Part shown: positions 1-62,245 of the stretch, in pieces
Layout: every line of letters begins with the position of its first letter
Position numbering within the stretch: position 1 is the first letter of the stretch
NCBI GenBank assembly: GCA_964633425.1
Contig: CAZWFX010000006.1
Span: forward strand, 4,955-68,954
Source of the DNA: an uncultured Candidatus Saccharibacteria bacterium
GTDB taxonomy: Bacteria; Patescibacteriota; Minisyncoccia; Phycocordibacterales; UBA2100
Direction: 5' to 3'
DNA length: 64,000 bases
The notes under the pieces: model-generated
Seen by the model: only the letters and a program-made list of their open reading frames with translations
The model's database searches: none
What the model was told of the DNA's origin: nothing
Position numbers and translations under genes: made by a program

Positions 1-737
1 ACGAGCATTCGATCGATCAGGTCACCGCCCACCTCGACAGTTGATGTGAAAATCGGAACACCTCGCTTCACAACGGCAAAACCGGTGCGCGCACGTCCGA
101 AATCCACCAAGAGCGTTATCGGCTCTTCAGCGTCCGACGATGAAACCGCGCGTGCAATCGAACGCGCCTCGACCTCAAGCGAGAGCAGCGTGATACCTGC
201 GGCGGAGAATGCGTCGACGTAGGCCTGAGCCACGTCCTTTGGGAATACAACAACGCTTATTTCTTCGCTGCCGCCGTCGTCGCGTGAAAGCGTATTGTAA
301 TCATATACAGCCGCGCTCGGAGGGATGGGCACCCGACCCTCAAATTCAAATTCGATCATACCGAGCACCTGAGCGCGTGGCGTTCCGCTCGGCACCTGCA
401 TACTGAACACGTACGCAGCCTCTTCGGGCAGCGCGGCATGCGCACAATAGATCCCCTTTAACTCCTTACGCACCCCCTTGAGCACGTCTGCAAGCGCCGG
501 CACGTCATGAATGACACCGTTCATTACAATGCCTGAGCGCAGCGGAATGTCGCCGTATGTCTGCACACGAAGACCGTTCTCGGCCGAGACAAGTGTGAGC
601 CACTTAATGGATGAGTCGGAAATATCGACGCCTGCGGCACGCGGCATCAGGAGACGCGGCATCGGGAACCACCGCGTGAGGCGTCGCGAGAATGTTTCTT
701 TCGCAGCAGAAAGAGCGGTGGGATCAGAAGACCACAT
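1..737 (-). CDS. pilM: type IV pilus assembly protein PilM, N-terminal part (gene continues past window start)
   Basis: Absent from ORF track because truncated. Hand translation of minus strand from ATG 737 gives MWSSDPTALS..AAGVDISDSSIKWLTLVSAENGLRVQTYGDIPLRSGIV..ITLLVDFGRARTGFAVVKRGVPIFTSTVEVGGDLIDRML, the PilM/FtsA-like actin-fold pattern. Confidence 0.7.
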   Translation of the reverse strand, partial: MWSSDPTALSAAKETFSRRLTRWFPMPRLLMPRAAGVDISDSSIKWLTLVSAENGLRVQTYGDIPLRSGIVMNGVIHDVPALADVLKGVRKELKGIYCAHAALPEEAAYVFSMQVPSGTPRAQVLGMIEFEFEGRVPIPPSAAVYDYNTLSRDDGGSEEISVVVFPKDVAQAYVDAFSAAGITLLSLEVEARSIARAVSSSDAEEPITLLVDFGRARTGFAVVKRGVPIFTSTVEVGGDLIDRML

Positions 738-7614: not shown

Positions 7615-8307
7615 ATGTCTCCCCTTCTCATACTTACCTGGACCGCGGCAGTCTCCCTGTGCGCGATCGGCGCCGCGTACTACGCACGAACATCCGGCCG
7701 CGCAGATGCGATCGTCGCACTCTATGTCACGCTCGTCGTGGCCTCGAATTTAGTCGCGTCAAAGATCGTCGGTTTTGACGTCGGTGTGGCCACTCTTTTT
7801 GCACCAGGTGCGACGCTTCTGTTTTCTGTCACCTTTTTGTTGACCGACATCGTGAACGAACGATTCGGCAGACAGGAAACCCAGCGGATGATTTACATCG
7901 CCGTCTTCGCACAACTCGCATTTCTCCTCTTCGGATACATTGCTGTGTCGGCGACACCCGCTCCGTTCTTTACGGGGCAAGCGGCCTTTGAAACCGTGTT
8001 TGGGACGGTACCGCGAATCGCACTCGCCGGGCTCGTGACATTTCTTATCAGCGAATCACTCGACGCATATTTGTATCAATGGTTCCGCCTGAAAACGCAC
8101 GGCCGTAATTTGTGGCTACGAAACGCCTTCAGCTCCATACCCGCGATGCTTTTGGACAGCGCACTATTCGTGACATTGGCGTTTTACGGAACAACCGCAC
8201 TCCTGCCGCTCATCATCGGACTCACGGTTGTGAAATGGATTGTCGCCGTGATCGACATTCCGTTCATGTACGCCGCCCGCTGGGTACTCGGTACGCGCAG
8301 TTCCTAG
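7615..8307 (+). CDS. queuosine-precursor transporter family protein (YhhQ/DUF165, VUT family)
   Basis: Multi-TM protein with FLLTDIVNERFGRQETQRMIY motif. Start set to ATG 7615, 6 nt after TACTAT (track start TTG 7576). Confidence 0.7.
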   Translation: MSPLLILTWTAAVSLCAIGAAYYARTSGRADAIVALYVTLVVASNLVASKIVGFDVGVATLFAPGATLLFSVTFLLTDIVNERFGRQETQRMIYIAVFAQLAFLLFGYIAVSATPAPFFTGQAAFETVFGTVPRIALAGLVTFLISESLDAYLYQWFRLKTHGRNLWLRNAFSSIPAMLLDSALFVTLAFYGTTALLPLIIGLTVVKWIVAVIDIPFMYAARWVLGTRSS

Positions 8308-19847: not shown

Positions 19848-19923
19848 GCGCTCATAGCTCAGTTGGTAGAGCAGCTCCCTTTTAAGGAGACGGTCCCAGG
19901 TTCAAATCCTGGTGGGCGCACCA
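19848..19923 (+). tRNA. tRNA-Lys (anticodon TTT), CCA encoded
   Basis: GCGCTCA..TGGGCGC acceptor, loop CTTTTAA, T arm CCAGG-TTCAAAT-CCTGG. TATAAA 11 nt upstream. Confidence 0.9.
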
Positions 19924-21191: not shown

Positions 21192-21374
21192 CTACCAGAT
21201 CTCGCGGTGACGGCCGGCGCCGATGTAATTCGCGTCGGTGATTTTCTTGGGAACCGTTCCGTCAGCCGACGGGATGTCGATTTTTTCTCCCTCGCCCATC
21301 TGCGCGATCTGATGTTTGATCGCAGCGGTCGACGGCGGCGGTATGACACGGCCGAAACGCTTGGTCTCTTTCAT
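21192..21374 (-). CDS. small hypothetical protein (60 aa)
   Basis: GAGGAG 6 nt upstream of the ATG. Confidence 0.5.
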   Translation of the reverse strand: MKETKRFGRVIPPPSTAAIKHQIAQMGEGEKIDIPSADGTVPKKITDANYIGAGRHREIW

Positions 21375-21436
21375 CGGTCTCTCCTCTTGTTTCCGATATC
21401 ACCCTACCCACGTACGCAGCATGCGTCAACGATTGC

Positions 21437-22204
21437 CTAATACGCCTCGCTCGCGTCCCATAGACCCTCGAAAAGGGCCTCGAACATGCCGTTGAGCTCC
21501 TGAGAGGTAATAAGAATGGCCGACGGCTTATCGAACGACGAAAAGATAGCGATCTTGTCGTCGAACAGGAACATCATGGATTTGAATTTCCCGTGCATAA
21601 CCCACGGCATGAGTCTCGGATTTCGCTCGTGACGCTCCTCGTCGGTGAGTGTGCGACTGGTACGCATACCGTCCTCCCACAAGGTGCGCGATGTGATGCC
21701 GTAGTGCTTTCGTGCGCGCAGGTAGCGGTCGGCGTACTCACGGTCGTACTCACGTAAAAAGTTCTGATACGGGGCGATGATGTCCCATTTCTTTGATTTA
21801 CAGTAAAAGGCTATGTCCATCACGAGCTTCATGCCGTCGATACCGCTGTACTGCACAACGCTCGCCCCGTCGCCGTCGGGTTTTATTTGCGAGACAAGCA
21901 ACGGGATAAGTTCCTCGAGCTTCTTTGATCGAGCTTCCAGTTCCTGACGCTGCTCTTCGACGAGTCCGCGGATGGTATCGGGCGGACACATTGAATACCT
22001 GATTTTCCCGCCTTTCTTTCGCTCGGATACAAGCCCCTTCTCGGTCAGCGTCCCGATCGCGTGATAAATAGTCGGTCGCTTAATCTTTGTCTTGTGTCCG
22101 ATCTCCTGCACGGTAAGCGCATCGGATGCGAGCCCCGCGAGATAGATCTTTGCCTCGGTGCGCGTGAGACCAAGACCAATAAGCGCGTCCTCAGTTTCGC
22201 TCAT
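21437..22204 (-). CDS. TrmB-family transcriptional regulator
   Basis: N-terminal wHTH LGLTRTEAKIYLAGL..LTVQEIGHKTKIKRPTIYHAIGTLTEKGLV. Promoter TTGACA-16-TATTGT-6-ATG. Confidence 0.7.
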   Translation of the reverse strand: MSETEDALIGLGLTRTEAKIYLAGLASDALTVQEIGHKTKIKRPTIYHAIGTLTEKGLVSERKKGGKIRYSMCPPDTIRGLVEEQRQELEARSKKLEELIPLLVSQIKPDGDGASVVQYSGIDGMKLVMDIAFYCKSKKWDIIAPYQNFLREYDREYADRYLRARKHYGITSRTLWEDGMRTSRTLTDEERHERNPRLMPWVMHGKFKSMMFLFDDKIAIFSSFDKPSAILITSQELNGMFEALFEGLWDASEAY

Positions 22205-22378
22205 AGGGGCACAATACGCGCGAGCGCCGTTATGTCAACGTGCTTTTAAACATTATTAGTCATGTTTTGAGCCAATTATTACTCTGTGTTCATCACGATT
22301 ATAAACAACCATTGGCAATTCTCTCCTACGCAATACGCTTACCAAAAGAGATCTTTGACAGCAAGAACTACGGTCTGT

Positions 22379-22493
22379 GCCTTGGTAGCTCAGTGGTAGA
22401 GCGTCGGAATTACACCTGCGAATCTGAAGTAGGTTGTGTAGCCGAAAAAGAGACGCAGTCCGAAGGTCAGGGGTTCGATCCCTCTCCAAGGTG
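22379..22493 (+). tRNA. tRNA-Val(TAC)-like gene interrupted by a 43-nt insertion (22416-22458) 3' of the anticodon loop
   Basis: Removing 22416-22458 leaves a 72-nt cloverleaf. It has acceptor GCCTTGG/CCAAGGT (G1.U72), D arm GCTC-AGTGGTA-GAGC, anticodon stem TCGGA/TCCGA with loop ATTACAC, variable AGGTC, and T arm AGGGG-TTCGATC-CCTCT. Confidence 0.55.
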
Positions 22494-22526
22494 CCCATCT
22501 TCTCTACAACCATGAAAGGAACAGCT

Positions 22527-23789
22527 ATGACCAACAAAGTCGTACATGTTATCGGCGGAGGCACTCGCGCTCGCATCGAGATTGACTCGCACGTCTACGT
22601 CGAGCTGGGTTCGAAGGCAACGGGCCCGACCGCACGAAGAATCGCGGAGCTCTGTCGCGAACACAACACCACCATGGACGTCCGGCTCCACCTCACGAAT
22701 ATGGCGGATCCGCAGAGCGGGATCGACACGAATGCCGACCTGAAGGAATTCGTACAGAGTCTCACCCGCGACATGACGACGAAGATCGTCTTTATGAACG
22801 CCGCGGTGCTCGACTTCGACCCGAGTTTTCCGAACGCAGTTGTCGGCAAAGAAGCCGGCCGACTGCGCACTTCGGACAATTCCGGCAAGCCGATCGAATA
22901 CGACTACACACTGCACCTCTCACCGAGCGAAAAGATCGTGCGACTCATCCGCGCCGAGCGGAAAGACATCTTTCTGGTGGCGTTCAAGCAGACCGACGGT
23001 GCAAGCACCGACGAGCAGTACCGTCTCGGACTGAACATGCTGAAGGCGGCGAGCGCGAACCTCGTACTCGCGAACGATCGCGCATCGAGGGCCAACATGA
23101 TCATCGTGCCGGAGGAAGCCGCGTACCACGTAACGACCGACCGCGAAGCGGCGCTGCGCAGTCTCGTCGAGATGGCGTACCTGCGCAGCCACCTCACATT
23201 CACTCGCTCAACGGTCGTTTCCGGCGAACCTGTTCCCTGGGAGTCAGACATCGTTCCGCCTGCGTTGCGTGCGGTGGTTGACCACTGTATCGATCGCGGC
23301 GCGTACAAAACGTTCCGCGGTGTGACCGCAGGTCACTTTGCGGTGAAGGTCGACGACACGACGTTCCTGACGTCGCGTCGCAAGACAGACTTCAACGACA
23401 TGAAGCGCGTCGGTCTGGTGAAGGTTCGCACCGACGGACCGGACTCCGTCATCGCCTACGGCTCGAAGCCGTCGGTCGGCGGACAGTCGCAGCGGATCGT
23501 GTTCGAAGAGCATCCGGACGCGGACTGCATCGTGCACTTCCACTGCCCCAAGAAGGCGGGTTCAGATGTGCCGACGGTTTCGCAGCGCGAGTATGAGTGC
23601 GGCAGCCACGAGTGCGGTCGCAATACGTCGCGGGGACTCCGGCGGTTCGGTAACCTGCTCGCCGTGTATCTCGACGAACACGGTCCGAATATCGTCTTCA
23701 ACAAGTCGATCGATCCGAAGGAGGTGATCGACTTCATCGAAACAAACTTCGTGCTCGAGGACAAAACGGGCGGATACGCGATCTCGTAA
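22527..23789 (+). CDS. fusion protein: CoaB/PPCS-like N-terminal domain + class II aldolase/adducin-like C-terminal domain
   Basis: N-terminal: VIGGGTRARIEID..KIVFMNAAVLDF..FLVAFKQTDG..ANLVLAND. C-terminal: GHFAVKVDDTTFLTSRR..SKPSVGGQSQRIVFEEHPDADCIVHFHCP. AAAGGA upstream of ATG 22527 (alternative 22512). Confidence 0.6.
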   Translation: MTNKVVHVIGGGTRARIEIDSHVYVELGSKATGPTARRIAELCREHNTTMDVRLHLTNMADPQSGIDTNADLKEFVQSLTRDMTTKIVFMNAAVLDFDPSFPNAVVGKEAGRLRTSDNSGKPIEYDYTLHLSPSEKIVRLIRAERKDIFLVAFKQTDGASTDEQYRLGLNMLKAASANLVLANDRASRANMIIVPEEAAYHVTTDREAALRSLVEMAYLRSHLTFTRSTVVSGEPVPWESDIVPPALRAVVDHCIDRGAYKTFRGVTAGHFAVKVDDTTFLTSRRKTDFNDMKRVGLVKVRTDGPDSVIAYGSKPSVGGQSQRIVFEEHPDADCIVHFHCPKKAGSDVPTVSQREYECGSHECGRNTSRGLRRFGNLLAVYLDEHGPNIVFNKSIDPKEVIDFIETNFVLEDKTGGYAIS

Positions 23790-45338: not shown

Positions 45339-46436
45339 TTAGCGATTGAGTGGCATCACGAGGTACATGAATGATGCGTCGGATGCGCCACGGATAACGA
45401 GCGGACGACCCGGCCCCGCAAACGAGAGCACTACACTGTCACTTTCTACACTCGGGAGACATTCGGAGAGGTAGCCAATATGAAAGTTAATGTCTAGGTC
45501 CTCACCGGTAAGCGCTGCGTCAATCGAATCGGACATCTCGCCCACATCATTCGAGCGTGCAGTCGCTGTGAATATCTTTTTCTTCGGATACACATGGAGA
45601 CCTACGTGCTGGTCATTACCAGAAAAAACGCGTGCCTTGCGAAGCATTTCAGACAGATCGGCCTTCAGGAGTGTTGCCTCGGTTGCCGTAGTCTTTGGCA
45701 CGATCTCTTTGTAGTTCGGGAATGTTGCGTCTACGACACGGGAAACGAATCGTACGCCGCCCCCGGAGAGCACCAGCTGTGCATCCTCTGTCGCGATCGT
45801 AACCGTGTCGTCATCGATCTTATCGAGGATGTGTGTGAGCTCAAGCGCGTGCTTGAGCGGAATGAGGAGCTCACTTTCCTCGCTCGCTCCGACACCGGTT
45901 ATCGTCTTTTCGGCAAGACGGAACGAATCAGTCGCTACGGATACCATCGAACCGTCTTTGATGACGATATAGATGCTTCCGAGGTCAGGACGGATCATTG
46001 AGGGTGATGCTGCATAGCTAACAGCCTGTAATCCGCGTGTAATTCGCTCCCTATTCATCGTAATACCCTTTTTAGATGTCGTGGTAGGGAGTACCGGGAA
46101 TTCAGCTTGTGGCACGGCTTTTATGAGGGTTTTCGTTCCGCGTGATTCGATCAATAAGTTTCCATCCTCTGCCGAGAGCGTAACGGTATCGCCGTTGATG
46201 GATCGGATCGTCTGAGAAAGAATCGTTGCCGGCACTGCGATCGTTCCCTTTTCCTGAATATCAGCAGGTACCGTGATCTCAACCCCTGCTTCAAGATTAG
46301 TTGCACGTATCACCAGTTCTTTATCCGCATCGATAAGGATGCACGAAAGTATCGGGAGTGATTCTTTTTTCCCCACTACCCTCTCCGCGATCAGAATCGC
46401 ATTTAGGATTTTTTCTTTCGTCGTTCCTATCTTCAT
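45339..46436 (-). CDS. dnaN: DNA polymerase III beta sliding clamp
   Basis: 365 aa with three-domain clamp pattern, located directly downstream of dnaA. Confidence 0.92.
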   Translation of the reverse strand: MKIGTTKEKILNAILIAERVVGKKESLPILSCILIDADKELVIRATNLEAGVEITVPADIQEKGTIAVPATILSQTIRSINGDTVTLSAEDGNLLIESRGTKTLIKAVPQAEFPVLPTTTSKKGITMNRERITRGLQAVSYAASPSMIRPDLGSIYIVIKDGSMVSVATDSFRLAEKTITGVGASEESELLIPLKHALELTHILDKIDDDTVTIATEDAQLVLSGGGVRFVSRVVDATFPNYKEIVPKTTATEATLLKADLSEMLRKARVFSGNDQHVGLHVYPKKKIFTATARSNDVGEMSDSIDAALTGEDLDINFHIGYLSECLPSVESDSVVLSFAGPGRPLVIRGASDASFMYLVMPLNR

Positions 46437-46673
46437 ACTTATTTAATTAAAGACTATTACTACTACTAGTGACTGGGATAACGGGATAACTCAGAAAGAG
46501 CTAGGAAATACGCGATAATTTCTGTCTCCGACACCCGTGGATAACTGCTGCGCGAGGACTGTGTCGTCTGTGGACGAACGTGCGTTGGAGAAGTACACCG
46601 TGCTATTCATTGAGACTTCATAGTGTTGTACCCTGCGTTCTTCCCCTGTTTGTGCAGGTGATATCCACATAGG
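46437..46673. other. dnaA-dnaN spacer with DnaA-box-like sites and AT-rich tract (possible second half of a bipartite oriC)
   Basis: CGTGGATAA 46536-46544 and ATATCCACA 46661-46669 (each 8/9 to TTATCCACA). AT-rich 46439-46470. Confidence 0.4.
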
Positions 46674-48038
46674 CTAGGCGTGAATCAGCGCGCGAATGTG
46701 GTCGAGCTCCTGTTCGAGCGAGCTCGAATTTTTCATCTCCTCCTTAATTTTCTCGCACGAGTGAATAACTGTCGTGTGATCGCGGCCGCCGAGCTTCTCG
46801 CCGATCGACGGATATGAGACTGCGAACTCTTCGCGCAATACGTACATAATGATCTGGCGGGGCTTCACGACCTCTTTCTTGCGAGTTTTCTCGTAGATGC
46901 TCTTCTCCGGCACTTCGTAGTACTGCGCGATACGGCGCACGACTTCGTCGATAGAGACTCCGCGGTTCGGTTTTACGTTGTGTTTGATGAGTGCACGCAC
47001 ATCCGCGTGCGAGATAGCCTTCCCTTTCAGTTGGGACTTACAGACGATCATATTGAGTACTCCCTCGAGCTCACGGATGTTACCTCGTACGTTCTCGGCA
47101 ATGTACTGAATGATGTCTGCGGGAATGGAAAAGCCGTGTTGCTCGATTTTTGCGCCTATGATGGCGGTTCGGCTCTCTACATCAGGCTCAGGGATCTCTG
47201 CAATCATGCCACCCGAGAACCGTCCTTTCAGGCGGTCTTCAAAGCCCGGCAACAGTGCCGGATGCTTGTCTGACGAGAAAACGATCTGTTTATTGTTGTC
47301 GCGCAGAGCGTTGAAGAGGTGGAACAGTTCCTCCTGGGTCTTCTCTGTATTTGCGATGAACTGGACGTCGTCCATGATGAGCACGTCGTACTGGCGGTAC
47401 TGGTCCTTGAAGTTATTGGCGTGACCCGCACGTACCGCGTTGATGTAGTCGATCGCGAAGCGCTCAGACGTTACGTAGAGCACCTTCTTGTTCGCGTGTG
47501 ACTTCTTGAAGTAGTTCCCTATCGCCTGGATAAGGTGAGTCTTTCCGTGACCGGTCGATCCGTAAATAAAAAGCGGGTTATATGCGAGTCCCGGGCGCTC
47601 AAGTACGGCCTTGGCCGCAGCGTGAGCGAGCTGGTTAAACGGGCCCACGACGAATGTCTCAAATGTGTAACGCGGGTTCAGGTTGTCGCGCTTGTCTATA
47701 TAGAGCGACTGGAGGTCGAACGAGGCGTTCTGAGGTGCCTCCTGCTTTTGTGGCTTGCGATCCTGCTGCGGTGCTGTGCGGTGCACTACGTATTCGACCG
47801 TTCGGATGGACGAATCGAGCGAGCGAAGCGCTTTCATGATGAGCTTGTGATGCTTGTCGGAGAGCCATTCCTTCACGATCTTGGACGGAACGGCGACCTG
47901 CACTGTTCCCCCGTCGCGGTGAGCGACATCAGTATTACGAAACCATGTTCGGAACGATGCTTCAGAAGTGCCCAACTCTATCTGTACGAGTGCGTTCTGC
48001 CATAGTTCACGGTTTGTCATCATAATTGTGGGGTACAT
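46674..48038 (-). CDS. dnaA: chromosomal replication initiator protein DnaA
   Basis: GSTGHGKTHL, IMDDVQF, RGNIRELEG, C-terminal ..IGEKLGGRDHTTVIHSCEKI. Confidence 0.95.
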   Translation of the reverse strand: MYPTIMMTNRELWQNALVQIELGTSEASFRTWFRNTDVAHRDGGTVQVAVPSKIVKEWLSDKHHKLIMKALRSLDSSIRTVEYVVHRTAPQQDRKPQKQEAPQNASFDLQSLYIDKRDNLNPRYTFETFVVGPFNQLAHAAAKAVLERPGLAYNPLFIYGSTGHGKTHLIQAIGNYFKKSHANKKVLYVTSERFAIDYINAVRAGHANNFKDQYRQYDVLIMDDVQFIANTEKTQEELFHLFNALRDNNKQIVFSSDKHPALLPGFEDRLKGRFSGGMIAEIPEPDVESRTAIIGAKIEQHGFSIPADIIQYIAENVRGNIRELEGVLNMIVCKSQLKGKAISHADVRALIKHNVKPNRGVSIDEVVRRIAQYYEVPEKSIYEKTRKKEVVKPRQIIMYVLREEFAVSYPSIGEKLGGRDHTTVIHSCEKIKEEMKNSSSLEQELDHIRALIHA

Positions 48039-48218
48039 CGTCTATGCAGTGAGAACAATGCTCCGCATTATACGCACTTCGTGCTCGTATGGAATCTTGA
48101 CCGAGGGTCTCGGGGGTGTTCACAACTATGTGGATAACGCGGGGATATGTTTTTTTGCTCTCGTTGAATTTTTTTTCGCACGTTGCGTTTTTCATCTGCC
48201 TGTCGCATACTGCGCCGC
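48039..48218. other. putative oriC (dnaA-rpmH spacer)
   Basis: Perfect DnaA box TGTGGATAA at 48129-48137, followed by the T/A-rich tract TATGTTTTTTTGCTCTCGTTGAATTTTTTTT (48146-48176). Gene strand bias switches here. Confidence 0.6.
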
Positions 48219-48359
48219 ATGTCGACCAAGCGAACATATCAACCCAAGAAGCGAAAGCGTGTAAAGACGCACGGTTTCCGAGCGCGCACAAAGTCTGCGA
48301 CCGGTAAGGCCGTACTCGTCCGCCGCCGCCGCAAGGGCCGAGCGAAGCTCACGGTCTAA
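48219..48359 (+). CDS. rpmH: 50S ribosomal protein L34
   Basis: Below the ORF-track size cutoff. Hand translation: [46 protein letters not shown]. Confidence 0.9.
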
Positions 48360-48373
48360 GACCGTTCCTGGCC

Positions 48374-48700
48374 ATGCCTAAAAAGCAGCGGCTTACAGGG
48401 GGCGAAATTCGTCGCCTCAAACCTGAAAAAAGGCTTGTTTCAAGCCTTTTTTCGCTTTCGTATGCGCGCGATACGGGTGCCGGGAAGGCTGCGTGTGTAG
48501 TGTCTAAAAAGGTCTCCGTCCGCGCGGTCGACCGCAATACCGTGAAGCGTCGGATGCGAGCTGCTTTGCGGGCGCTCGCTCCCCTACCCCCGCATGTCTC
48601 TATGGTAATAGCCGCCAAGAAGGCGGTGACCGCGGTCTCGTACAAGGAGCTTCACACAGATCTCGAAGCGCTCATCGGACGCGTTCATAGCGGGAAATAA
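48374..48700 (+). CDS. rnpA: ribonuclease P protein component
   Basis: 108 aa, basic, KKVSVRAVDRNTVKRRMRAALR. Canonical position after rpmH. Confidence 0.85.
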   Translation: MPKKQRLTGGEIRRLKPEKRLVSSLFSLSYARDTGAGKAACVVSKKVSVRAVDRNTVKRRMRAALRALAPLPPHVSMVIAAKKAVTAVSYKELHTDLEALIGRVHSGK

Positions 48701-48727
48701 TCTCAGAGAGTACAATACGCGAACCAT

Positions 48728-49462
48728 ATGATCTCCTCAGCATTTCACGCGGCCGTGTATCTCCCGATCTATAACGCACTTGTCTACTTTGTCGACGTAG
48801 TGCCGACGCACGATATCGGCATCGCGGTCATCATCGTCACGATCATTGTGCGCCTGATCCTCTTCCCGCTTGCACGCCGGGCTATCAAGTCTCAGATGGC
48901 TATGAAGGCGGTTGCCCCAGAGATTGAGGAGCTTAAGAAAAAATACAAGGATAAGCCGGAAGAACAGGGTCGCGCTATGTTTGCGCTATACCGGGAGCGT
49001 AAGGTGAATCCGTTCTCAGGGTTCTTGCTCCTGTTGCTCCAGCTCCCAATCCTGCTCGGTCTCTACTGGGTATTCGCTCGTGGCGGGTTTCCGGTGGTAA
49101 AGCCGGAAATGCTCTATTCGTTCGTCGCGGTGCCGGAGGCAGTGAACATGCACTTCGTAGGCCTCATTGATATGGGAGGAAAAAGCATCCTTTTGGCCGT
49201 TTTAGTGGCTATAACACAGGCTATTTACACCCGTCTCTCCATGGGTCCTCAGGGCACCATAACCCAGACCGAAGCATCGTTCTCGGACGAAATGGCGAAG
49301 AGCTTCGATGTCCAGGCGCGTTACGTGCTGCCTGTCGTCATTGGAATCGTGTCCTACTTTGTTGCCGCCGCCGCACCGTTGTACTGGGTCACCAGCAACG
49401 TTTTTATGATCGGACAAGAGATTTTCGTCGGTCGCCGCTTTCACGGCCGTCACGTGCAGTAA
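48728..49462 (+). CDS. yidC: membrane protein insertase YidC (short form)
   Basis: ILFPL..KSQMAMKAVAPEIEELKKKYKD..NPFSGFLLLLLQLPIL. Confidence 0.85.
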   Translation: MISSAFHAAVYLPIYNALVYFVDVVPTHDIGIAVIIVTIIVRLILFPLARRAIKSQMAMKAVAPEIEELKKKYKDKPEEQGRAMFALYRERKVNPFSGFLLLLLQLPILLGLYWVFARGGFPVVKPEMLYSFVAVPEAVNMHFVGLIDMGGKSILLAVLVAITQAIYTRLSMGPQGTITQTEASFSDEMAKSFDVQARYVLPVVIGIVSYFVAAAAPLYWVTSNVFMIGQEIFVGRRFHGRHVQ

Positions 49463-49525
49463 AAGCATCACGTTTGATTGGGCGTCAAGTCGCGCACCGT
49501 TTGAATTGAGAGTATAGTGCCCTTC

Positions 49526-49993
49526 ATGCACGCAACGGTTGAAACAATTTTGAAGGAACTGCTTGCCTCGATGGGGCTTGGGACCGCCAAAGTCAGCCAC
49601 GCAGAAGTCGCCGGTCAGGCCATTTTTTCCATACAGACTGAGGATCCGGCCGAGGCTCGAGCACTCATCGGGGCGCACGGCGATACGGTTCACGCTATCG
49701 ATATGTTGGTAAAGAAGATCGCAGAAAAGCGACTCTCTGCCGAGGACTCCGAGAATATGCACTTCCTTGTGGATGTGAACGACTACCGAGTGAAGCAGAT
49801 CAAGGACCTGCAGACCAAGGCTCTTATGATGGCGGAGCGCGCCCGATCATTCCAGTACGACGTTGAGCTCTCCCCCATGAGCGCTTACGAGCGACTCATC
49901 GTGCACACGACGCTCCAGGATGCCCCGAATGTAAAGACCGAATCAGCCGGCGAAGGCCGAAATCGTCGCGTAGTGATCAAATACGCTGCGTAA
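49526..49993 (+). CDS. jag: Jag/KhpB-like RNA-binding protein (KH + R3H)
   Basis: C-terminal LSPMSAYERLIVHTTLQD (R3H). ATG 49526 lies 7 nt after TATAGT. Confidence 0.75.
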   Translation: MHATVETILKELLASMGLGTAKVSHAEVAGQAIFSIQTEDPAEARALIGAHGDTVHAIDMLVKKIAEKRLSAEDSENMHFLVDVNDYRVKQIKDLQTKALMMAERARSFQYDVELSPMSAYERLIVHTTLQDAPNVKTESAGEGRNRRVVIKYAA

Positions 49994-50051: not shown

Positions 50052-50507
50052 TTATTTGGAACCGATACCCCCCTGCCCCAGCGGTGTCGTCTGTTTGGGT
50101 GTCACGTATTTGATATTGAGCTGTGTGAGTTGCGGGTTGATCTGGTTCAGGATGAGATACACGCTCAAAAGCAGCAAGAGTCCGATCATTACGTCGCCTA
50201 GTATCTCTTTGGCGTGCGACTTCTCCCCCCATGCGTCTGACGACATGTATTGCCATCCGGCGTAGCCGATGCGGAGTACTGCGAGGATCGCTCCGATCGA
50301 AAGTGCGACCTTAAATGCGGAACCAACGAACGAGCCTAGGTCATTGAAGCCGGAACTGTTGACGCTGTTCACGCCGAAGATCTTAGAAAAATCGGCATTC
50401 TTGGTGAGCGGCACAAAGCCTCCCTGCGCGTGCGAGAGCACGGGAACGGCAAGAGCGAGCGCAAACAGGATCAGAAATGTGAATGTGAGAGTTCGCGTGA
50501 TGCGCAT
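50052..50507 (-). CDS. VirB2/TrbC-like pilin candidate
   Basis: Signal peptide MRITRTLTFTFLILFALALAVPVLSHA plus two hydrophobic helices separated by a short loop. ATG 50507. Confidence 0.5.
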   Translation of the reverse strand: MRITRTLTFTFLILFALALAVPVLSHAQGGFVPLTKNADFSKIFGVNSVNSSGFNDLGSFVGSAFKVALSIGAILAVLRIGYAGWQYMSSDAWGEKSHAKEILGDVMIGLLLLLSVYLILNQINPQLTQLNIKYVTPKQTTPLGQGGIGSK

Positions 50508-50514
50508 AGGTACA

Positions 50515-51747
50515 TTATTCACTGATTCTGAGCAGCCAGAGTGACTTATCCGCAGCATCGCGGAATCCGATCGCTGAGCCCGTTTCGTCCATCATCGGCT
50601 CCTCTACATCAAAGTCGGTGCGAGTATCCGGTACGAAGAACCGTGTCGCTGTTCCGGCTGCAGCTTCCACTCGCCACCAGATATCGTGCGTATGAACTGC
50701 CCCTGCGTACCAGCCGGCAAGGTACCCGTTCTTCGGAGATTCCGCCGGCACTGCGCAGTACGCTATGAGTCCGGCACCCGGTGCCCATACGCATTTGTCC
50801 GCCGTCGTCTCGAGCGGCAGTCTGATAGCATCGCTACCCTCGTTCTTTACATAGAGTGCGAGCTTGCCGTCCTCGACCGCCCCGTAGAGATAGGCCTCTG
50901 CGGTGTCATGGTAGCGAACGGTCAGGCCGTTCACGTTCGAGACGAGCGGCTTCATGGTGCCTGACGGCGAGACGATGAACGAGTACCCCGATGCGGTGTC
51001 CGATGCAGCCTGGACGATAACAGCTCGACCGTCGGCAAGCGCCTGCGCCCTCCACTGATACAGCGGTGAGACGAAAATCTTTTTTGTGTTTGTCCCCTTC
51101 CAGCCCGAAGAGACGCCGATCGAGCCCCCTTCTGCAAGTTTTGCGATGTAGAAAATATTCTTTGCGGTCGTCTGGTAGTTGGGAGTGTCCAAGGCAACGA
51201 TATTCTGCGGCAGGTACGTGCCTTCGAGCACATTCGGTGTCGAGGTCGAGGTGATCACGCTGGTCGTTGCAATGGAAGCGGCGAATGTTGTCACCACGTC
51301 CTGCTCGTTGGTCGTGCGCAGTATCACGTCACCCGAGCGGCTGAACCGCGCATCCATAATCTTCGGCATGAGTGTGTTCGTGAGACGAATGATGCTGCTC
51401 GTGTTGGGGTCGGCTCGCATGATGTTACCCGTTGCTCGCTCTGCGATGTAGATTGATGCTCCGGACGGACCGAATCCGAACCCTGCGATCGGAGTGCGGG
51501 TCACATGCCACAGGCGCGGTGCGCGGCTTCCGATCTCAGAGGTGGACGTACCGGTATCCCCCGAGATGTTCTGGTAGGTGCTTCCGGCACCGCCCGAGAA
51601 CGAGGCCTCTTCGGTGTTGCCTCGTGCGGTGATCTCGGAGGACGTCTCTGCAGTCTTGTTCTTTATAAAAAAGTACCACCCGGCGGAGCCGCCGATGATC
51701 ACGACCAACAGTGCGACGAGCGTGAATTGAATGATTGAGTTACGCAT
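50515..51747 (-). CDS. anchored extracytoplasmic protein, beta-propeller-like
   Basis: N-terminal TM, then repetitive beta-strand-rich sequence. Start ATG 51747 abuts the upstream stop. Confidence 0.5.
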   Translation of the reverse strand: MRNSIIQFTLVALLVVIIGGSAGWYFFIKNKTAETSSEITARGNTEEASFSGGAGSTYQNISGDTGTSTSEIGSRAPRLWHVTRTPIAGFGFGPSGASIYIAERATGNIMRADPNTSSIIRLTNTLMPKIMDARFSRSGDVILRTTNEQDVVTTFAASIATTSVITSTSTPNVLEGTYLPQNIVALDTPNYQTTAKNIFYIAKLAEGGSIGVSSGWKGTNTKKIFVSPLYQWRAQALADGRAVIVQAASDTASGYSFIVSPSGTMKPLVSNVNGLTVRYHDTAEAYLYGAVEDGKLALYVKNEGSDAIRLPLETTADKCVWAPGAGLIAYCAVPAESPKNGYLAGWYAGAVHTHDIWWRVEAAAGTATRFFVPDTRTDFDVEEPMMDETGSAIGFRDAADKSLWLLRISE

Positions 51748-51748
51748 A

Positions 51749-52759
51749 TTATTTGCCGGTGAACGGGTCAACGCTCGCTCCGGATTGCGTGGAGCCGCCG
51801 AGTGTACCGAATGTCACGTTCCAGAGTCCGTGTGCGTCGAGACGGAAGTTTTTCTTATGAGTGAGCGACAGCTCTATGAGACCGACGCCGCCTTCCGCCC
51901 CGGCGTTGATTGTGAGCGTTGCCGGACGTTCTTTGTTGGCTTCTACGGGGGCCTTGTTCACACGCCAGATGTAGGTGAACTGTTTGTCGTTCGGACCGTC
52001 AGCAAATGCAAAGTACGGGATTGCAGTGAATGTCATTTCGGTGTCTCCGAGGGAGGTCTCGGCGGGCACCGCATTGTGATACATGGTTCCGTAGAGCGGA
52101 TGCTCGAAATACAACTGCGTCATTGGTACAACGGTTGCGATCGCTGCAGTACGGTCGGCGCCGAGCGTCCGGTCGGATGTCGTTACGCTGACGCTGATGG
52201 TGTTGGTTTGTGAAAATTCCGCAACCGGCACGCTGAGCGAGGTCTTTCCGCGTCCGCTCAAGAGCGTCTCCCCGCTCTGTGTCCATGTGTAGACGAGCTG
52301 CGACGCCGGGATCTCTACGCCATCCTTTGCAAAATGCGGCAATGCCTGCAGGGTGATCGAAGCGCCGAGGCTCGGAAGATGACGTCCGCGGTAGAGGCCC
52401 GGTGCGTAGGTATTTGCTTCCCAGAGCAGATCGACAGACAGCGGTATTATGGAAAGCGAAGCGTCGCCGTCCACGCCGTCCACGCGGACCGACATATCGG
52501 CACGCTCTCCGCTTTGCGGCGCCTTCATTTTGAATACAGTCTCACCCTCCCCTTCCGCAACAATAGTTCCGCTGTTGCGCCACGAGATCTGGCGCTGTGT
52601 AAGATCCATCACCGGGCTCTGTACCGTAAGTGTGACCGCTTCACCCGGGCGCGGGTACTGCGGCGTGACGGAAACGAACAACCTCGGTCCATTGAACAGC
52701 TCCTGTGCCGAAGCCGGAAGTGCAAGGAGCAACACGACGAGAAAGACGATGTACCTCAT
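51749..52759 (-). CDS. secreted protein (336 aa), Ig-like beta-rich
   Basis: Signal peptide MRYIVFLVVLLLALPASA. ATGA overlap with virB4. Confidence 0.5.
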   Translation of the reverse strand: MRYIVFLVVLLLALPASAQELFNGPRLFVSVTPQYPRPGEAVTLTVQSPVMDLTQRQISWRNSGTIVAEGEGETVFKMKAPQSGERADMSVRVDGVDGDASLSIIPLSVDLLWEANTYAPGLYRGRHLPSLGASITLQALPHFAKDGVEIPASQLVYTWTQSGETLLSGRGKTSLSVPVAEFSQTNTISVSVTTSDRTLGADRTAAIATVVPMTQLYFEHPLYGTMYHNAVPAETSLGDTEMTFTAIPYFAFADGPNDKQFTYIWRVNKAPVEANKERPATLTINAGAEGGVGLIELSLTHKKNFRLDAHGLWNVTFGTLGGSTQSGASVDPFTGK

Positions 52760-54708
52760 ACGATACCGGGAGCGACCGCAGGCTCTGCCGGCGAAGCCGG
52801 AGCCGGTGTTCCGCCGGTTTTCGGGAGCGCGGCTGCGGCGAGTGTTGCGGCTGCCTGCTGTGTCGCTTCGCGCTGTTCGTTGATCTGTGCGTCGGTCGAG
52901 TTTTGGAGGTCCTGTTTTGCCTTCTTGATGGCGAGAATCTGTGACGGGTCCGATGTGATGATCTGGTCTTCCGTATACGACGCGATAACCTTGATCGCGA
53001 CGTGCTTCAGTCCGGCAAAGAAGATTCCCTCACCCACATCCGATTCAAGCAGGAGGTATTTCTCTTCGTCAGAGAGCTTGAAGGTCTGCTGGACGAGGTC
53101 AACGGACGTCGGTGACTGTCGCAGGAGCATCTGGATCGATGAGTTTGTGATCATCGGTACACCGTAGGGTGAGTTCAAGAAGTCGGATACGTCCTGTGTG
53201 ATCGTCGAGATGCCGAGGAAGTATTTTCGTCCGCGCTTTGCGATCGAGAAGAGGAAGGATGCAGTGTCCTCGGATCGCATCATCCACCAGGCCTCGTCGA
53301 TGATGAGAAGTCGTTTGCGGAGCTCCTTTCGCACCGTGTTCCAAATGTGGTGCGTAATGATGTACATCGCCACCGGCTTGAGGTCGTCTTCCATGTCTCG
53401 GACTGAAAACACGACCAGTTTCTTGTTCATGTCGACGTTGGTCGGACGATTCATGAATCCGGACCATGTGCCCTTGGTGTACTTGGAGAGTCGCTGCACA
53501 AGCGACTCAGATCCGTCCATGCCGGAGAGCACGAGTTCGAAGTCGGAAAGGAGCGGCGGTTCGACGGCTGCAAAGTTCGCGTCCGCGGTAATGTCCTTCA
53601 GTGCGTAGGTCTCCGTAATGGCGCGGTCGATAACGGCATCCTCTTCAGGGGTCAGGCCGCCGAGCATGATGCGGAAGAGTCCGACGAGCGTGATGATGTT
53701 ATTACGAAGGACGTCCGACGGCGACTCGTCTTCGCGCGGAATCGGCAGGTCGAACGGGTTAATGTGGTGCTCCGACGAGAGCGAGATATTGAAGTATCGC
53801 CCGCCGACCGTTTCCGCGAGGTATTCGTACTCGCGTTCAGGGTCGATGACGATCACTTCAGTGTCGAACATGAGCGAGCGAAGAATCTCCAGCTTGGTGG
53901 TGTAGGACTTACCGGCACCGGATTTCGCGAAGGTAACGGAGTTGTAGTTCTCGAGCGAGAAACGGTCGAACAGAATGAGGGACGAGTTGTGGCGGTTGAT
54001 GCCGTAGAGAATGCCTCGATCCGAGGTTAGGTCGAATGAGATGAACGGAAAGATCGATGAGAGCGGAGCGGAGTTGAGCTTTGTGTGTACATCGAGCTCA
54101 TCGGTCGCGATCGGAAGAACAGATCGGAAGCCCTGCTCCTGCTGAAAGAGGGCCGGACGGATGTACACGAGTCGTGATTCAAGGACGGATCGGATTTCGC
54201 TTTCGGTCTTGTCGACTTGTTCACGCGTAGCGCCGTAGATTGTGAGGTACAAGCCGACGTCGAATATCTTTTCCTGAGCCTGCTGCAAAGAGTCGCGCAG
54301 CTGTTCGAGGTCGGAGTACGCGGTGTCGAGCATCGGGTCGCGCACCATCCCTTTCTCTTCGCGTGTCGAGATCTGGCTTTGTACTTCGGCCACTTTTTTC
54401 TGGAACTTTCGGAGCATTTCGTTGGTATCCATCGGGTGGATGAAGATCGAAATATCGAGCACCTTGTCCATGTTGATGATCGGCGCGAACCAGCCTGTTG
54501 TGAGGAATCGCGGGTACGAGATCACGAAGAAGGTTCGTGCAATCTTTTCCCCGAGGTCGAGCTCGTGCGACGAAATCTTGAGGGCGTGCGGTGCGATGAC
54601 ATCCTGGAGATCAAGTACGCCCGTCTGATAAATTTCCTCCGGCAGAACCGGGAGCACATTCGGCCCCTGCTCCTGCTTTTTTCCCAATAGTGAGTCGAAA
54701 AGTCCCAT
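52756..54708 (-). CDS. virB4: VirB4/TraC/TrbE-family type IV secretion ATPase
   Basis: FAKSGAGKSYTTK Walker A, LLIIDEAWWMM Walker B, and N-terminal VirB4 membrane-associated domain. ATG 54708 (track 54879). Confidence 0.85.
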   Translation of the reverse strand: MGLFDSLLGKKQEQGPNVLPVLPEEIYQTGVLDLQDVIAPHALKISSHELDLGEKIARTFFVISYPRFLTTGWFAPIINMDKVLDISIFIHPMDTNEMLRKFQKKVAEVQSQISTREEKGMVRDPMLDTAYSDLEQLRDSLQQAQEKIFDVGLYLTIYGATREQVDKTESEIRSVLESRLVYIRPALFQQEQGFRSVLPIATDELDVHTKLNSAPLSSIFPFISFDLTSDRGILYGINRHNSSLILFDRFSLENYNSVTFAKSGAGKSYTTKLEILRSLMFDTEVIVIDPEREYEYLAETVGGRYFNISLSSEHHINPFDLPIPREDESPSDVLRNNIITLVGLFRIMLGGLTPEEDAVIDRAITETYALKDITADANFAAVEPPLLSDFELVLSGMDGSESLVQRLSKYTKGTWSGFMNRPTNVDMNKKLVVFSVRDMEDDLKPVAMYIITHHIWNTVRKELRKRLLIIDEAWWMMRSEDTASFLFSIAKRGRKYFLGISTITQDVSDFLNSPYGVPMITNSSIQMLLRQSPTSVDLVQQTFKLSDEEKYLLLESDVGEGIFFAGLKHVAIKVIASYTEDQIITSDPSQILAIKKAKQDLQNSTDAQINEQREATQQAAATLAAAALPKTGGTPAPASPAEPAVAPGIV

Positions 54709-54709
54709 A

Positions 54710-55369
54710 TTATTGCTGTTCGAGCGACATCGGCTTAGAGTCCTCGCCCGGATTGAACATCTTGTACAACAGTTCGATCGCCTCTTCGGTACCGAGCTGC
54801 ACCGTGCGTACACCTGTTCGCACGAGTCCCTGCTGCACAATTGAGATGCGCTGCTCGAGCTGCGTAGCCTGCTCTTCAAAGGTACGGTTCTCTTCCGCAG
54901 CGTCAGTTTTCTTCTTCCCGAACGGGAAGATCGAGCCTCCGGAGCTTGTCTGAATAACAGCCGGCGTATACGGCACTACGATGAAGAAGTTCTTAGTCAT
55001 GATGTTGGCCGCCTCAGTGAAGCTTTTGATGAACTCGATGTATTCGCGGATCTGAATCCGCATCAGGTCATCGAGCTGGCCTTTATAGGCCTCTTCGAGT
55101 GTTGCGATGTAGGGGCGAATGTCGAGTTGTCGGGACTGCACGAAGATCTGGCATGAAAAGTCGAGTGAGTTCAGGAAGTTCTGAAATTGCACGATGAAGG
55201 CGGTCTGTTCGTCCTCGGACTTCAGTGCAAAGTTGATCGACGATGCGAGCAGGATCGCGCGCAGACCGTTGTCTTTCATGACCACGATACCGTCGCGCAC
55301 CTCCTTGATCGGCACGAACTCCTGTGTCGACTTGTTCTCGCTGCGCGTACTGTTCTGGGTCTGCGGCAT
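54710..55369 (-). CDS. stand-alone VirB4 N-terminal-domain-like protein
   Basis: FVPIKEVRDGIVVMKDNGLRAILLASSINFALKSEDEQTAFIVQFQNFLNSLDFSCQIFVQS parallels the N-terminus of Gram-positive-type VirB4 and of the adjacent virB4. Confidence 0.55.
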   Translation of the reverse strand: MPQTQNSTRSENKSTQEFVPIKEVRDGIVVMKDNGLRAILLASSINFALKSEDEQTAFIVQFQNFLNSLDFSCQIFVQSRQLDIRPYIATLEEAYKGQLDDLMRIQIREYIEFIKSFTEAANIMTKNFFIVVPYTPAVIQTSSGGSIFPFGKKKTDAAEENRTFEEQATQLEQRISIVQQGLVRTGVRTVQLGTEEAIELLYKMFNPGEDSKPMSLEQQ

Positions 55370-55371
55370 AG

Positions 55372-55878
55372 TTATTGTGTGAGTGCTTTCAGGGCTTCAC
55401 GAGGTGTACGGATGCCGCGTGCCATGTCTTCGCTTCGTACAGCATCGCGGTCACGCTCGTTACCTGTTCCGGCGGCGATACGCTCCTTGATGTCGAGACT
55501 CCAGGCCAGTTCGTGGAGTCTGCTGTCGTTGAGTCTCGGCACGTAGAGGTTCTCCTGCGGCATGAGTGGGTTCTTTTTTGCTTCAGCGATACGTTTTTTT
55601 GTCTTGTTGTTCCACAAGTAGAGCTTGGAGTGGATGAGATAGAAGAATGCGGTTTCAAGCGCGACCATGAAAGGGCGGCCGTTGTACTGCATGAACGCGA
55701 GCGCAACCGAGAAACCGACTACCATCATCGCGATCGGTGCCGCTATAAACGACGGGAGTAGTCGCCACACAAGGTATGCGAGACCTAATCCGCCCGCCAT
55801 GTAGACGAACTGTTTGAATGTGAACGGTCCGAAGATTTTATCTTCGACCTCAATGAATTGAGGTACCTGAAACTGCAT
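55372..55878 (-). CDS. PrgI/VirB3-like membrane protein
   Basis: MQFQVPQFIEVEDKIFGPFTFKQFVYMAGG followed by 2 TM, the PrgI-family pattern. Confidence 0.6.
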   Translation of the reverse strand: MQFQVPQFIEVEDKIFGPFTFKQFVYMAGGLGLAYLVWRLLPSFIAAPIAMMVVGFSVALAFMQYNGRPFMVALETAFFYLIHSKLYLWNNKTKKRIAEAKKNPLMPQENLYVPRLNDSRLHELAWSLDIKERIAAGTGNERDRDAVRSEDMARGIRTPREALKALTQ

Positions 55879-55886
55879 GCAGTATT

Positions 55887-55896
55887 AGTATACCCC
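55887..55896 (-). promoter_or_regulatory. GGGGTATACT promoter-like 10-mer, 8 nt upstream of ATG 55878
   Basis: Plus strand reads AGTATACCCC. Confidence 0.5.
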
Positions 55897-55951
55897 GCGT
55901 CGAACGCTGCCCGCTGCGCTTTTCACAGTCGTAACCGTGATGCGCGCGTAA

Positions 55952-56539
55952 TTACGACAGTTGTTCGCGGTACGGATCACCCTCGATACTTTTTCGTTCG
56001 TGACTTGCGCTCGCGCTGTATGTTTGCGGTATCTGGGCGCGCACTGCTTTTTCTTCCGGTGCGGGCGCCGGGGGTGTTGCAGGGACGACAGCCGGCGTGG
56101 GCGGCTCGACTGGTATGCCGACTTCGGGTGTATCCCCCGACGAGCCCTCTGCGTGGAGTGTTTCAGCTCGCAGAGTGTCGACGTCTGATATTGCCTGCTG
56201 CACTGCCGTCGGGTGACTGAGCGAGCGTTCCATTTCGCCGCGGATCGGCTTGAATACGATGTCTGAGACGCTCTGAGAAAGTTCGGTTGCGACCTCTGCC
56301 GTCACGTTGAGGTCTTTTTCGAGCCGGGTCGGCAACTCTGCGACCGGCTGGAAGCCAAGGAGCGTCAGCATTACGTTATTCTCGAGCACCTGCCACTGAT
56401 CAACGTGAAGTTTGTGACCTTCCGCGAGGTCGCGCATATGCTTTTGAACGTCTGCAGACGTTATTGCATCCTGGACGACCTTCGGGAGGGTTGCGAACCG
56501 CTCTGCAAACTGTGCCGACATGTCCTGTTCTGTGTCCAT
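55952..56539 (-). CDS. hypothetical cytoplasmic protein (195 aa)
   Basis: Helical N-terminal domain and P/A-rich tail. Embedded in the T4SS-like operon. Confidence 0.45.
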   Translation of the reverse strand: MDTEQDMSAQFAERFATLPKVVQDAITSADVQKHMRDLAEGHKLHVDQWQVLENNVMLTLLGFQPVAELPTRLEKDLNVTAEVATELSQSVSDIVFKPIRGEMERSLSHPTAVQQAISDVDTLRAETLHAEGSSGDTPEVGIPVEPPTPAVVPATPPAPAPEEKAVRAQIPQTYSASASHERKSIEGDPYREQLS

Positions 56540-56542
56540 ATA

Positions 56543-58861: not shown

Positions 58862-58872
58862 ACAGGTGGTCG

Positions 58873-61304: not shown

Positions 61305-61310
61305 ACTAAA

Positions 61311-61320
61311 AGTATACCCC
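61311..61320 (-). promoter_or_regulatory. GGGGTATACT promoter-like 10-mer
   Basis: Plus strand reads AGTATACCCC. Confidence 0.45.
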
Positions 61321-61369
61321 AGTGAAACGGCGGCGCGTGGCTCAAACACGGGAAAAAATGGGATAGCAA

Positions 61370-62239: not shown

Positions 62240-62245
62240 GATCAC

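Follow-up and report, generated by a model that had tools for sequence, protein, structure and literature searches.

Organization of the locus and anatomy of the element

The stretch analyzed here (the window) comprises 64,000 nt of contig CAZWFX010000006.1 from an uncultured Candidatus Saccharibacteria bacterium. At 22379-22493 on its plus strand it carries a 115-nt tRNA-like element, in which a cloverleaf resembling tRNA-Val(UAC) is interrupted beside the anticodon by an insert of 43 nt. The element precedes a gene encoding a DFP-like/aldolase fusion protein, whose ATG at 22527 is located 33 nt past the tRNA 3' end, and a TrmB-family regulator is encoded divergently upstream (Table 1). Genes for MaoC, PAP2 and BacA proteins, identified with Pfam, follow the fusion gene in the operon. 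More than 3200 homologues of the DFP-like/aldolase protein were detected, mostly from the candidate phyla radiation (CPR). The window also encodes DNA polymerase I, a PBP1A-type peptidoglycan synthase, PilB, a VirB4-like ATPase, RuvABC, DnaA/DnaN and the rnpA-yidC-jag genes, indicating that the host is a bacterium and that the insert therefore cannot be dismissed as an ordinary archaeal intron. The closest genome records were metagenome-assembled genomes (MAGs) labelled Candidatus Saccharibacteria or Paceibacterota. Both the bacterial genes and these labels support the CPR host proposed in the initial annotation, which had been made from the sequence of the window alone.

Table 1. Positions of the tRNA-like element, its parts and the associated genes in the window.
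Feature	Position	Strand	Content	Basis
TrmB-family helix-turn-helix regulator, divergent	21437..22204	-	adjoins the operon with and without the element	Pfam
Conserved regulatory leader	22287..22360	+		alignment of 10 loci
tRNA-like gene, 5' half	22379..22415	+	acceptor 5' strand, D arm, anticodon-stem 5' strand, 7-nt loop	Rfam alignment, sequence
Insert	22416..22458	+	43 nt at the 38/39 loop-stem boundary	sequence, folds, comparison with relatives
tRNA-like gene, 3' half	22459..22493	+	anticodon-stem 3' strand, variable loop, T arm, acceptor 3' strand, G73 (22493)	
DFP (CoaB-like) and class II aldolase-like fusion	22527..23789	+		Pfam
rnpA, RNase P protein subunit	48374..48700	+		Pfam PF00825, E = 1e-17

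The element matched the Rfam tRNA model RF00005 with 54.2 bits against a gathering score of 29. The alignment spanned model positions 1-71 with all four arms present, and a block of about 45 nt remained unaligned within the anticodon loop. Deletion of 22416-22458 leaves a clean 72-nt tRNA with the anticodon UAC. The anticodon stem consists of five base pairs (UCGGA, 22404-08, with UCCGA, 22459-63) and the 7-nt loop AUUACAC is intact (22409-15, anticodon at 22411-13). As encoded, this loop is not closed directly by its stem, and 50 nt lie between the two anticodon-stem strands. The exons further displayed G1.U72, U8, A14, G18G19, U33, A37, the variable loop AGGUC, the T-loop UUCGAUC and G73. 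The ends of the insert are complementary and can form a stem, P1 (CUGCG, 22416-20, with CGCAG, 22454-58), and an internal GUGUA (22436-40) is complementary to UACAC, which is the anticodon plus 2 nt. Every feature that the initial annotation had described for the element was found to match the sequence. Since the 115-nt element was present in five independent assemblies, it is not an assembly artefact.

ARAGORN did not call the element in its default mode. With intron detection, which the initial annotation had proposed to run, the element was found with a 43-nt intron at 34/35 and was labelled tRNA-Ala(UGC). The splice register is ambiguous on sequence grounds. Removal of 43 nt at 38/39 results in the loop AUUACAC and removal at 35/36, 36/37 or 37/38 in AUUACAG, all of them Val-UAC, while removal at 34/35, the register picked by ARAGORN, results in AUUGCAG (Ala-UGC). 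A further intron-mode call, tRNA-Pro(GGG) at 21327-21494 (-) with 74 nt taken as intron, extends over the 3' end of the TrmB-family open reading frame (ORF). This call received no support from Rfam and is almost certainly a false positive.

Distribution, inheritance and conservation

Relatives were sought with the downstream gene in GTDB species genomes and in a large protein collection. The resulting set, consisting of the window and 24 loci (275 kb), contained four distinct element sequences, all from one clade. The same gene was preceded by the element in L001 (97% identity of the adjacent protein), in L002 (81% over the aligned region) and in L020 and L021 (79%), and the elements of these relatives scored 49.8-54.4 bits on RF00005. 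The equally close loci L003, L019, L022 and L024 (76-77%) and more distant loci were without the element and kept the divergent TrmB-family regulator, the upstream motifs and the same downstream gene. A further homologue, P0003 (JGI), showed 77% identity and had a spacer of 280 nt. A neighbour-joining tree built from the adjacent protein grouped the four element-bearing loci in one clade, with the close element-less relatives as its sister. The orthologous loci, whose comparison had been suggested at the outset, are thus divided into an element-bearing clade and a sister clade without it. The simplest history would be a single gain in the ancestor of the clade, followed by vertical inheritance.

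Conservation of the insert was extreme. Divergence at four-fold sites of the adjacent gene was 18% between the window and L001, 54% between the window and L002 and 46% between L002 and L020, and the corresponding inserts differed at 0/43, 2/43 and 0/43 positions, respectively. So small a number of changes has a binomial probability of about 1e-7 to 1e-12. Over the whole 115 nt, 1-5 differences were counted against the 18-54% at four-fold sites. The only variable positions of the insert are the adjacent 22425-26, with UG changed to CA in L002 and L020. Three exon changes were detected in the whole clade, namely G26A (22403, L001), U16C in the D loop (22394, L020) and A43G (22463, L002 and L020). 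The last of these keeps its pairing with U27 as a G.U wobble, and all three are structurally neutral. With 2 of 43 positions variable in the insert and 3 of 72 in the exons, the constraint on the insert equals that on the tRNA body, indicating one functional unit and not a disposable spacer. As judged from sequence divergence, these comparisons demonstrate that the whole 115 nt evolve under purifying selection as one unit. The comparison of relatives likewise identifies the element as a functional, vertically inherited, tRNA-derived RNA gene with an insert selected at the level of its sequence.

After G73 follows the trailer CCCA (22494-97). Including G73, it reads GCCCA in the window, L002 and L020, and GCCA in L001. 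CCA is not encoded by most tRNAs of the lineage.

The disabled pseudogene that the initial annotation had listed as an alternative is refuted by the very strong purifying selection on exons and insert, and a decaying pseudogene was ruled out by 0-2/43 insert changes at a neutral divergence of 18-54%. A related explanation is a disabled pseudogene or mobile-element scar that only seems conserved through recent transfer between lineages, with which the insertion in the anticodon loop and the atypical G73 and G1.U72 would agree. It is highly improbable, as the low counts recur in each of three independent pairs of lineages, the tree agrees with vertical descent and the insert is single-copy. Directly beside the element, the flanks differ both in sequence and in length. 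The transfer would therefore have had to replace exactly these 115 nt, which is unlikely.

One copy of the insert was detected in the window and no others in the 275 kb. A dispersed palindromic repeat, a miniature inverted-repeat transposable element (MITE) or an element like the Rickettsia palindromic elements (RPE) was rejected on this single copy. Metagenome scans, both exon-anchored with a free gap and with the 3' half alone, gave no matches, and neither the element nor the insert had a match in viral contigs or in phage and plasmid records.

Comparison with known introns and insertions

The initial annotation had noted a resemblance to the introns of archaeal and eukaryal pre-tRNAs. These protein-spliced introns (EndA/TSEN with RtcB or Trl1) share with the element a short anticodon-loop insertion, an anticodon-complementary sequence and a canonical tRNA upon removal. 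The element differs from them by the lack of the BHB (bulge-helix-bulge) motif, by its natural boundary at 38/39 instead of 37/38, by its bacterial host and by an insert as conserved as the exons. An exhaustive script search found no BHB or relaxed BHB whose cuts regenerate the tRNA. For the canonical BHB at 37/38, which pairs exon 32-35 with intron -3 to -6, only one of the four central pairs forms. The resemblance is therefore superficial, no BHB being compatible with the exons. No members of the EndA, RtcB or RNA-ligase families were identified among the approximately 64 ORFs of the window. Two surveys devoted to tRNA introns in bacteria list none but group I introns and a few of group II, and place BHB introns in Archaea and Eukarya only (PMC13011429; bioRxiv 10.1101/2020.01.27.920355), which bears out the expectation that an insert of this kind would be unusual. 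No bacterial protein-dependent tRNA-splicing machinery is known (PMC13011429). Our literature search found no reports of bacterial BHB introns or of EndA/RtcB-based tRNA splicing in Patescibacteria.

Group I introns of bacterial tRNA genes measure 184-894 nt (PMC13011429), and the insert of 43 nt is far too short for this class, as had been pointed out initially. Patescibacteria are unusually rich in tRNA introns (PMC13011429). Their group I introns of the 35/36 class resemble the element in interrupting the anticodon loop, in belonging to the same phylum and in causing the same confusion of register and isotype in ARAGORN. Unlike them, the insert has only 43 nt and no catalytic core. It gave no RF00028 signal, and in 0 of 8 possible registers did U-1 and a terminal G (omegaG) occur together, so that a group I intron was rejected. 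Apart from the tRNA model, Rfam yielded no match at E<=1 in 22300-22560 and none at E<=10 in 22400-22475. The insert thus belongs to no known intron class. None of the other tRNAs in the window and the 24 loci, about 25 in all with the element, was interrupted.

The nearest precedent was found in Lak megaphages. Their 'enigmatic' tRNA introns are 79-114 nt long, highly conserved, Rfam-negative and located at 37/38, and their mechanism is unknown (PMC6784885, Table S6). The insert resembles them in being short, Rfam-negative, conserved and placed beside the anticodon in a bacterial system. The Lak introns form an AT-rich family sharing a 5' hairpin and AUUAAAC motifs, with a nested acceptor/T-arm minihelix (GGTTCGAATCC). 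The insert differs by its size, by its chromosomal location and by having none of these motifs, its hairpin GGUU-GUGU-AGCC being without the T-loop consensus, and showed no BLAST similarity to phage records. A literature follow-up on the Lak introns returned no relevant report.

Another group of insertions is known from the same lineage. The rRNA genes of Saccharibacteria contain mostly short non-intron insertions, which are thought to be intervening sequences (IVSs) excised by RNase III (PMC11270868). Like these, the insert is a short structured hairpin with paired ends in a stable-RNA gene and has no intron hallmarks. RNase III or another housekeeping nuclease could accordingly excise the hairpin without religation and leave two base-paired tRNA halves. 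We regard this as very unlikely. The duplexes of RNase III-type IVSs are regular and of about 20 bp or longer, whereas P1 measures 5 bp and opens into a 7x7 internal loop, and so short and irregular an arm would suit RNase III poorly as a substrate. Here a tRNA gene and not an rRNA gene is interrupted, and a tRNA nicked at the junction of anticodon loop and stem is not expected to decode. The conservation of the whole insert sequence would also be left unexplained.

tRNA folds with other roles occur in the tRNA-like domain of transfer-messenger RNA (tmRNA), in YrlA, in RNase P/Z punctuation of the mascRNA type and in tRNA-mRNA co-transcripts, an example being the tufB operon of E. coli. As in the element, the anticodon arm of tRNA-derived RNAs can be replaced or extended, and a location before an mRNA allows tRNA processing to double as mRNA processing. 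Unlike tmRNA and YrlA, the element has canonical D and T arms, acceptor stem, anticodon loop and termini. Neither the tmRNA nor the YrlA model of Rfam matched it.

Isotype of the tRNA-like part

The anticodon identity nucleotides of tRNA-Val, A35 and C36, were both present, and the registers from 35/36 to 38/39 all led to Val-UAC. The discriminator of tRNA-Val is A73, and all four sequence variants carried G73. For valyl-tRNA synthetase (ValRS), A73 is an identity element and G73 a poor substitute. G73, G1.U72 and A32 were kept in all variants, and all three are atypical for tRNA-Val. The initial annotation had remarked on the first two, which are hereby confirmed, with A32 as a further anomaly. 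The other tRNAs were canonical, those of the window carrying the expected discriminators (Ser G73, Arg A73 and Lys A73). A tRNA-Val(GAC) from L011 (Patescibacteria) possessed A73, and its anticodon loop ends in ACAC as in the element. The loop of this gene (7767-7839, +) is UCGACAC, with C at position 33 in place of the near-universal U33.

Other isotypes fitted less well. tRNA-Ala(UGC) with the intron at 34/35, as called by ARAGORN, was rejected, because 3:70 is C:G and not G:U and the 8-bp acceptor stem is not conserved: position -1, which provides the extra acceptor pair, is U in the window and L001 and G in L002 and L020. Asn and Asp were considered on account of G73 and BLAST matches to phage tRNA-Asn and were rejected as well, since no register yields GUU or GUC. 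When the spliced form was compared by BLAST with annotated phage and plasmid tRNAs, the matches were of mixed isotypes (phage neighbours Val, Ala, Asn and Arg), so that similarity does not settle the isotype. tRNA-Val(UAC), as first proposed, is the best isotype reading.

Codons read by such a tRNA are in use, GUA occurring at 11.6 per 1000 codons, which is 16% of the Val codons. Complete Saccharimonadia genomes contain only 2-4 tRNA-Val genes (PMC13011429 Table S2), suggesting that spare copies are not the rule.

A different tRNA of the clade also showed an unusual anticodon loop. The orthologue of the tRNA-Lys(UUU) of the window (19848-19923; 3399-3474 in L001) is located at 63-136 (+) in L002 and has the loop CUUUAAA, not CUUUUAA, the rest of the body being identical. 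Its anticodon UUA would read the stop codon UAA, making it ochre-suppressor-like if real. The sequence comes from a 5-kb MAG contig with about 5x coverage and could contain a sequencing error.

Structure of the insert

In the minimum free energy fold of the window sequence, P1 stacked directly on the anticodon stem and AUUACAC formed a 7-nt bulge. Beyond P1 follows a purine-rich 7x7 internal loop, which contains the two variable positions. AGUA (22428-31) and GAA (22444-46), which we take to be the consensus of the sarcin-ricin (loop-E) bulged-G motif, flank the hairpin GGUU-GUGU-AGCC (22432-43). The hairpin loop and the next base constitute GUGUA, which contains the Val codon GUA and is able to pair with the anticodon. 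A second fold of nearly equal energy was the minimum for L002 and for the consensus of the four sequences. In this fold the 5' anticodon-stem strand, the anticodon and the start of the insert pair with the insert's central part (raw positions 26-29:64-67, 33-36:57-60 and 37-41:51-55), and the variable positions lie in the apical loop. No compensatory changes were found among the four near-identical sequences, and therefore neither fold is proven. The predicted folds suggest that the arm may stack on the anticodon stem or compete with it, and could mask the anticodon.

Several motif assignments within the insert were rejected. A hammerhead-like reading of CUGAAGUA...GAAA failed, as L002 and L020 have CCAAAGUA and Rfam detected no ribozyme. 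A kink-turn (K-turn) within the internal loop would lose its G.A pair in L002 and L020. In the 9-nt apical loop of the second fold, CUG of the window and CCA of L002 could be taken for an alternative anticodon or for a specifier like that of a T-box, but the identities would differ and we consider it a coincidence.

The regulatory leader

The conserved leader upstream of the element begins with the palindrome TGTTCAT-N7-ATAAACA (22287-22307), which was conserved in the alignment of 10 loci. It is followed by a putative promoter assigned by eye, with TTGGCA (22312-17) as -35, a 16-nt spacer (16-17 across the loci) and TACGCT (22334-39) as -10, and by the conserved box TCTTTGACA at 22352-60. T22312, G22314, C22316, A22317, A22335 and T22339 were invariant in the 10 loci. 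In the element-less relatives, the ribosome-binding site and the ATG come directly after the TTTGACA box. In the clade with the element, TTTGACA and the ribosome-binding site are separated by about 150-175 nt, made up of the 115-nt element between a short leader and a trailer of about 20 nt. An automated promoter scan reported only a minus-strand promoter, that of the regulator gene (TTGACA-16-TATTGT at 22238-22211), and an automated scan of 22100-22700 found no terminator. With a conserved promoter upstream and no terminator before the coding sequence, the element would most likely be the first part of the operon transcript.

The region 22230-22360 had conserved equivalents in L001, L002, L005, L006, L008, L010, L019, L020, L022 and L024. 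Its shared features were an inverted pair TGTCAA(AG)...(CT)TTGACA about 120-130 nt apart, a TTTAAGCCA box and the invariant TTGnCA / TAnnnT. Judging from this alignment, the TrmB-family regulator probably has its operator and promoter set here.

The proximity of this regulated promoter, together with the extreme conservation of the insert, could also mean that the 43 bp act as DNA, for instance as a protein-binding or recombination site within a tRNA gene. We give this explanation hardly any weight. The insert has no similarity to the operator palindrome, its organization at the RNA level is clear (paired ends, hairpin and complementarity to the anticodon), and relatives regulate the same operon without the element. 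Even jointly, excision without ligation, a function at the DNA level and a pseudogene conserved by transfer appear improbable.

Fate of the insert: retained or spliced

The position of the block inside a conserved 5' leader and the anomalous G73, G1.U72 and A32 raised the alternative of a tRNA-like RNA. The initial annotation had likewise considered such an RNA upstream of the CoaB-like/aldolase gene, and we find it at least as likely as a true intron. Our preferred reading, held tentatively, is that the element is an unspliced, RNase P-processed RNA derived from tRNA-Val(UAC), in which the inserted arm disables decoding. According to this reading, the ancestor of one Saccharibacteria-like clade would have gained a copy of a tRNA gene within the short 5' leader of its DFP-like/aldolase operon. 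The copy would carry the 43-nt arm with P1, the purine-rich internal loop, the AGUA/GAA motif and the anticodon-complementary hairpin loop. Transcribed as the first part of the operon transcript, it would be cut by RNase P 5' of G22379 and by a 3' tRNA-processing nuclease near 22493. A stable 115-nt tRNA-shaped RNA would be set free by these cuts, and the remaining mRNA would begin at a processed 5' end about 30 nt ahead of its start codon. The arm might keep the RNA out of the ribosome and provide a binding surface. The element could thus serve as a leader-processing or regulatory module, as a trans-acting tRNA-like RNA, or as both.

We ranked this reading first because it requires no unknown enzymology and agrees with the anomalous identity nucleotides, with insert and exons being equally conserved and with the location inside a regulated leader. 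It also offers the easier evolutionary path, a duplicate copy being free to change. The rnpA gene encoded in the window counts in its favor, as does the lack of a BHB, of group I features and of splicing enzymes among the window ORFs.

Several observations weigh against an unspliced RNA. The tRNA part is fully intact, including the tertiary-pair nucleotides, U33, purine 37 and the 5-bp anticodon stem. Removal of the insert restores a perfect 7-nt loop, and the paired ends juxtapose the exons, which is the architecture of an intron. Complementarity between anticodon and insert is typical of pre-tRNA introns. GUA codons are used and Val tRNA genes are few in the group. None of the folds is backed by covariation. 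Use of the promoter and processing by RNase P are themselves inferred. The conserved short introns of phages that fit no class (PMC6784885) suggest that unknown splicing routes may exist.

Most of these points favor instead a genuine tRNA-Val(UAC) gene, in which the 43 nt would constitute a short bacterial tRNA intron of unknown class, distinct from BHB and group I introns alike. Splicing would then involve a hairpin-recognizing endonuclease, cutting at the base of P1 or 1-3 nt earlier in the loop, and an RNA ligase, or alternatively a very small RNA-catalysed reaction, and would yield a 72-nt tRNA whose loop reads AUUACAC or AUUACAG. Such an intron is consistent with the 54-bit cloverleaf, with the normal tRNA-Val(UAC) obtained in all registers from 35/36 to 38/39, with the strong purifying selection on the exons, whose changes are all neutral, and with the ACAC end shared by the loop of the L011 tRNA-Val(GAC). 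It has its precedent in the Lak megaphages and a setting in the richness of Patescibacteria in tRNA introns (PMC13011429). We nevertheless consider this main rival somewhat less likely than an unspliced RNA. The insert shows neither a BHB nor group I features, and the protein-dependent machinery that it would need is neither known from bacteria (PMC13011429) nor encoded in the window. As the sole interrupted tRNA of about 25, it would require a dedicated pathway for a single substrate. A tRNA-Val would not typically have G73, G1.U72 and A32, the insert is conserved as much as the exons, and an essential tRNA would depend on a promoter adjoining the operator of a regulator.

In either case, the element is a short and strongly conserved interruption of a bacterial tRNA gene which is neither group I nor group II, the only kinds in the surveys. 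If spliced, it would represent a protein-dependent or novel RNA-based route of tRNA splicing in bacteria, with implications for how tRNA introns arose and for the 'enigmatic' ones of phages. If retained, as we prefer, it would be a clean recent case of a tRNA gene copy turned into a structured RNA in an operon leader, and a tractable example of the birth of a non-coding RNA in a minimal genome.

The treatment of the element by ARAGORN, missed by default or mislabelled as Ala in intron mode, distorts CPR tRNA inventories. In four complete Saccharimonadia genomes (GCA_010202845.1, GCA_013099015.1, GCA_016699105.1 and GCA_016699895.1), ARAGORN reported one more tRNA-Ala than tRNAscan-SE, and these genomes have 3-4 Val tRNAs (PMC13011429 Table S2). 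Since the element is mislabelled as Ala(UGC), they may carry similar interrupted genes. Their occurrence in genomes with a full Val set, if true, would favor the unspliced RNA.

Other features of the window

The chromosomal origin region was identified at 45339-49993. It contains dnaN (45339-46436, -) and dnaA (46674-48038, -), followed by rnpA, yidC and a Jag/R3H gene (48374-49993, +), and the cumulative GC skew has its minimum at about 44-46 kb. The block 50052-62245 (-) consists mostly of ORFs without family assignment around a VirB4-like ATPase (52756-54879) and a PrgI-family protein (55372-55878). It resembles a type IV secretion (T4SS) or conjugation-like cluster, and T4SS-pilin/TrbC-like genes were also located near the operon copy of L019.

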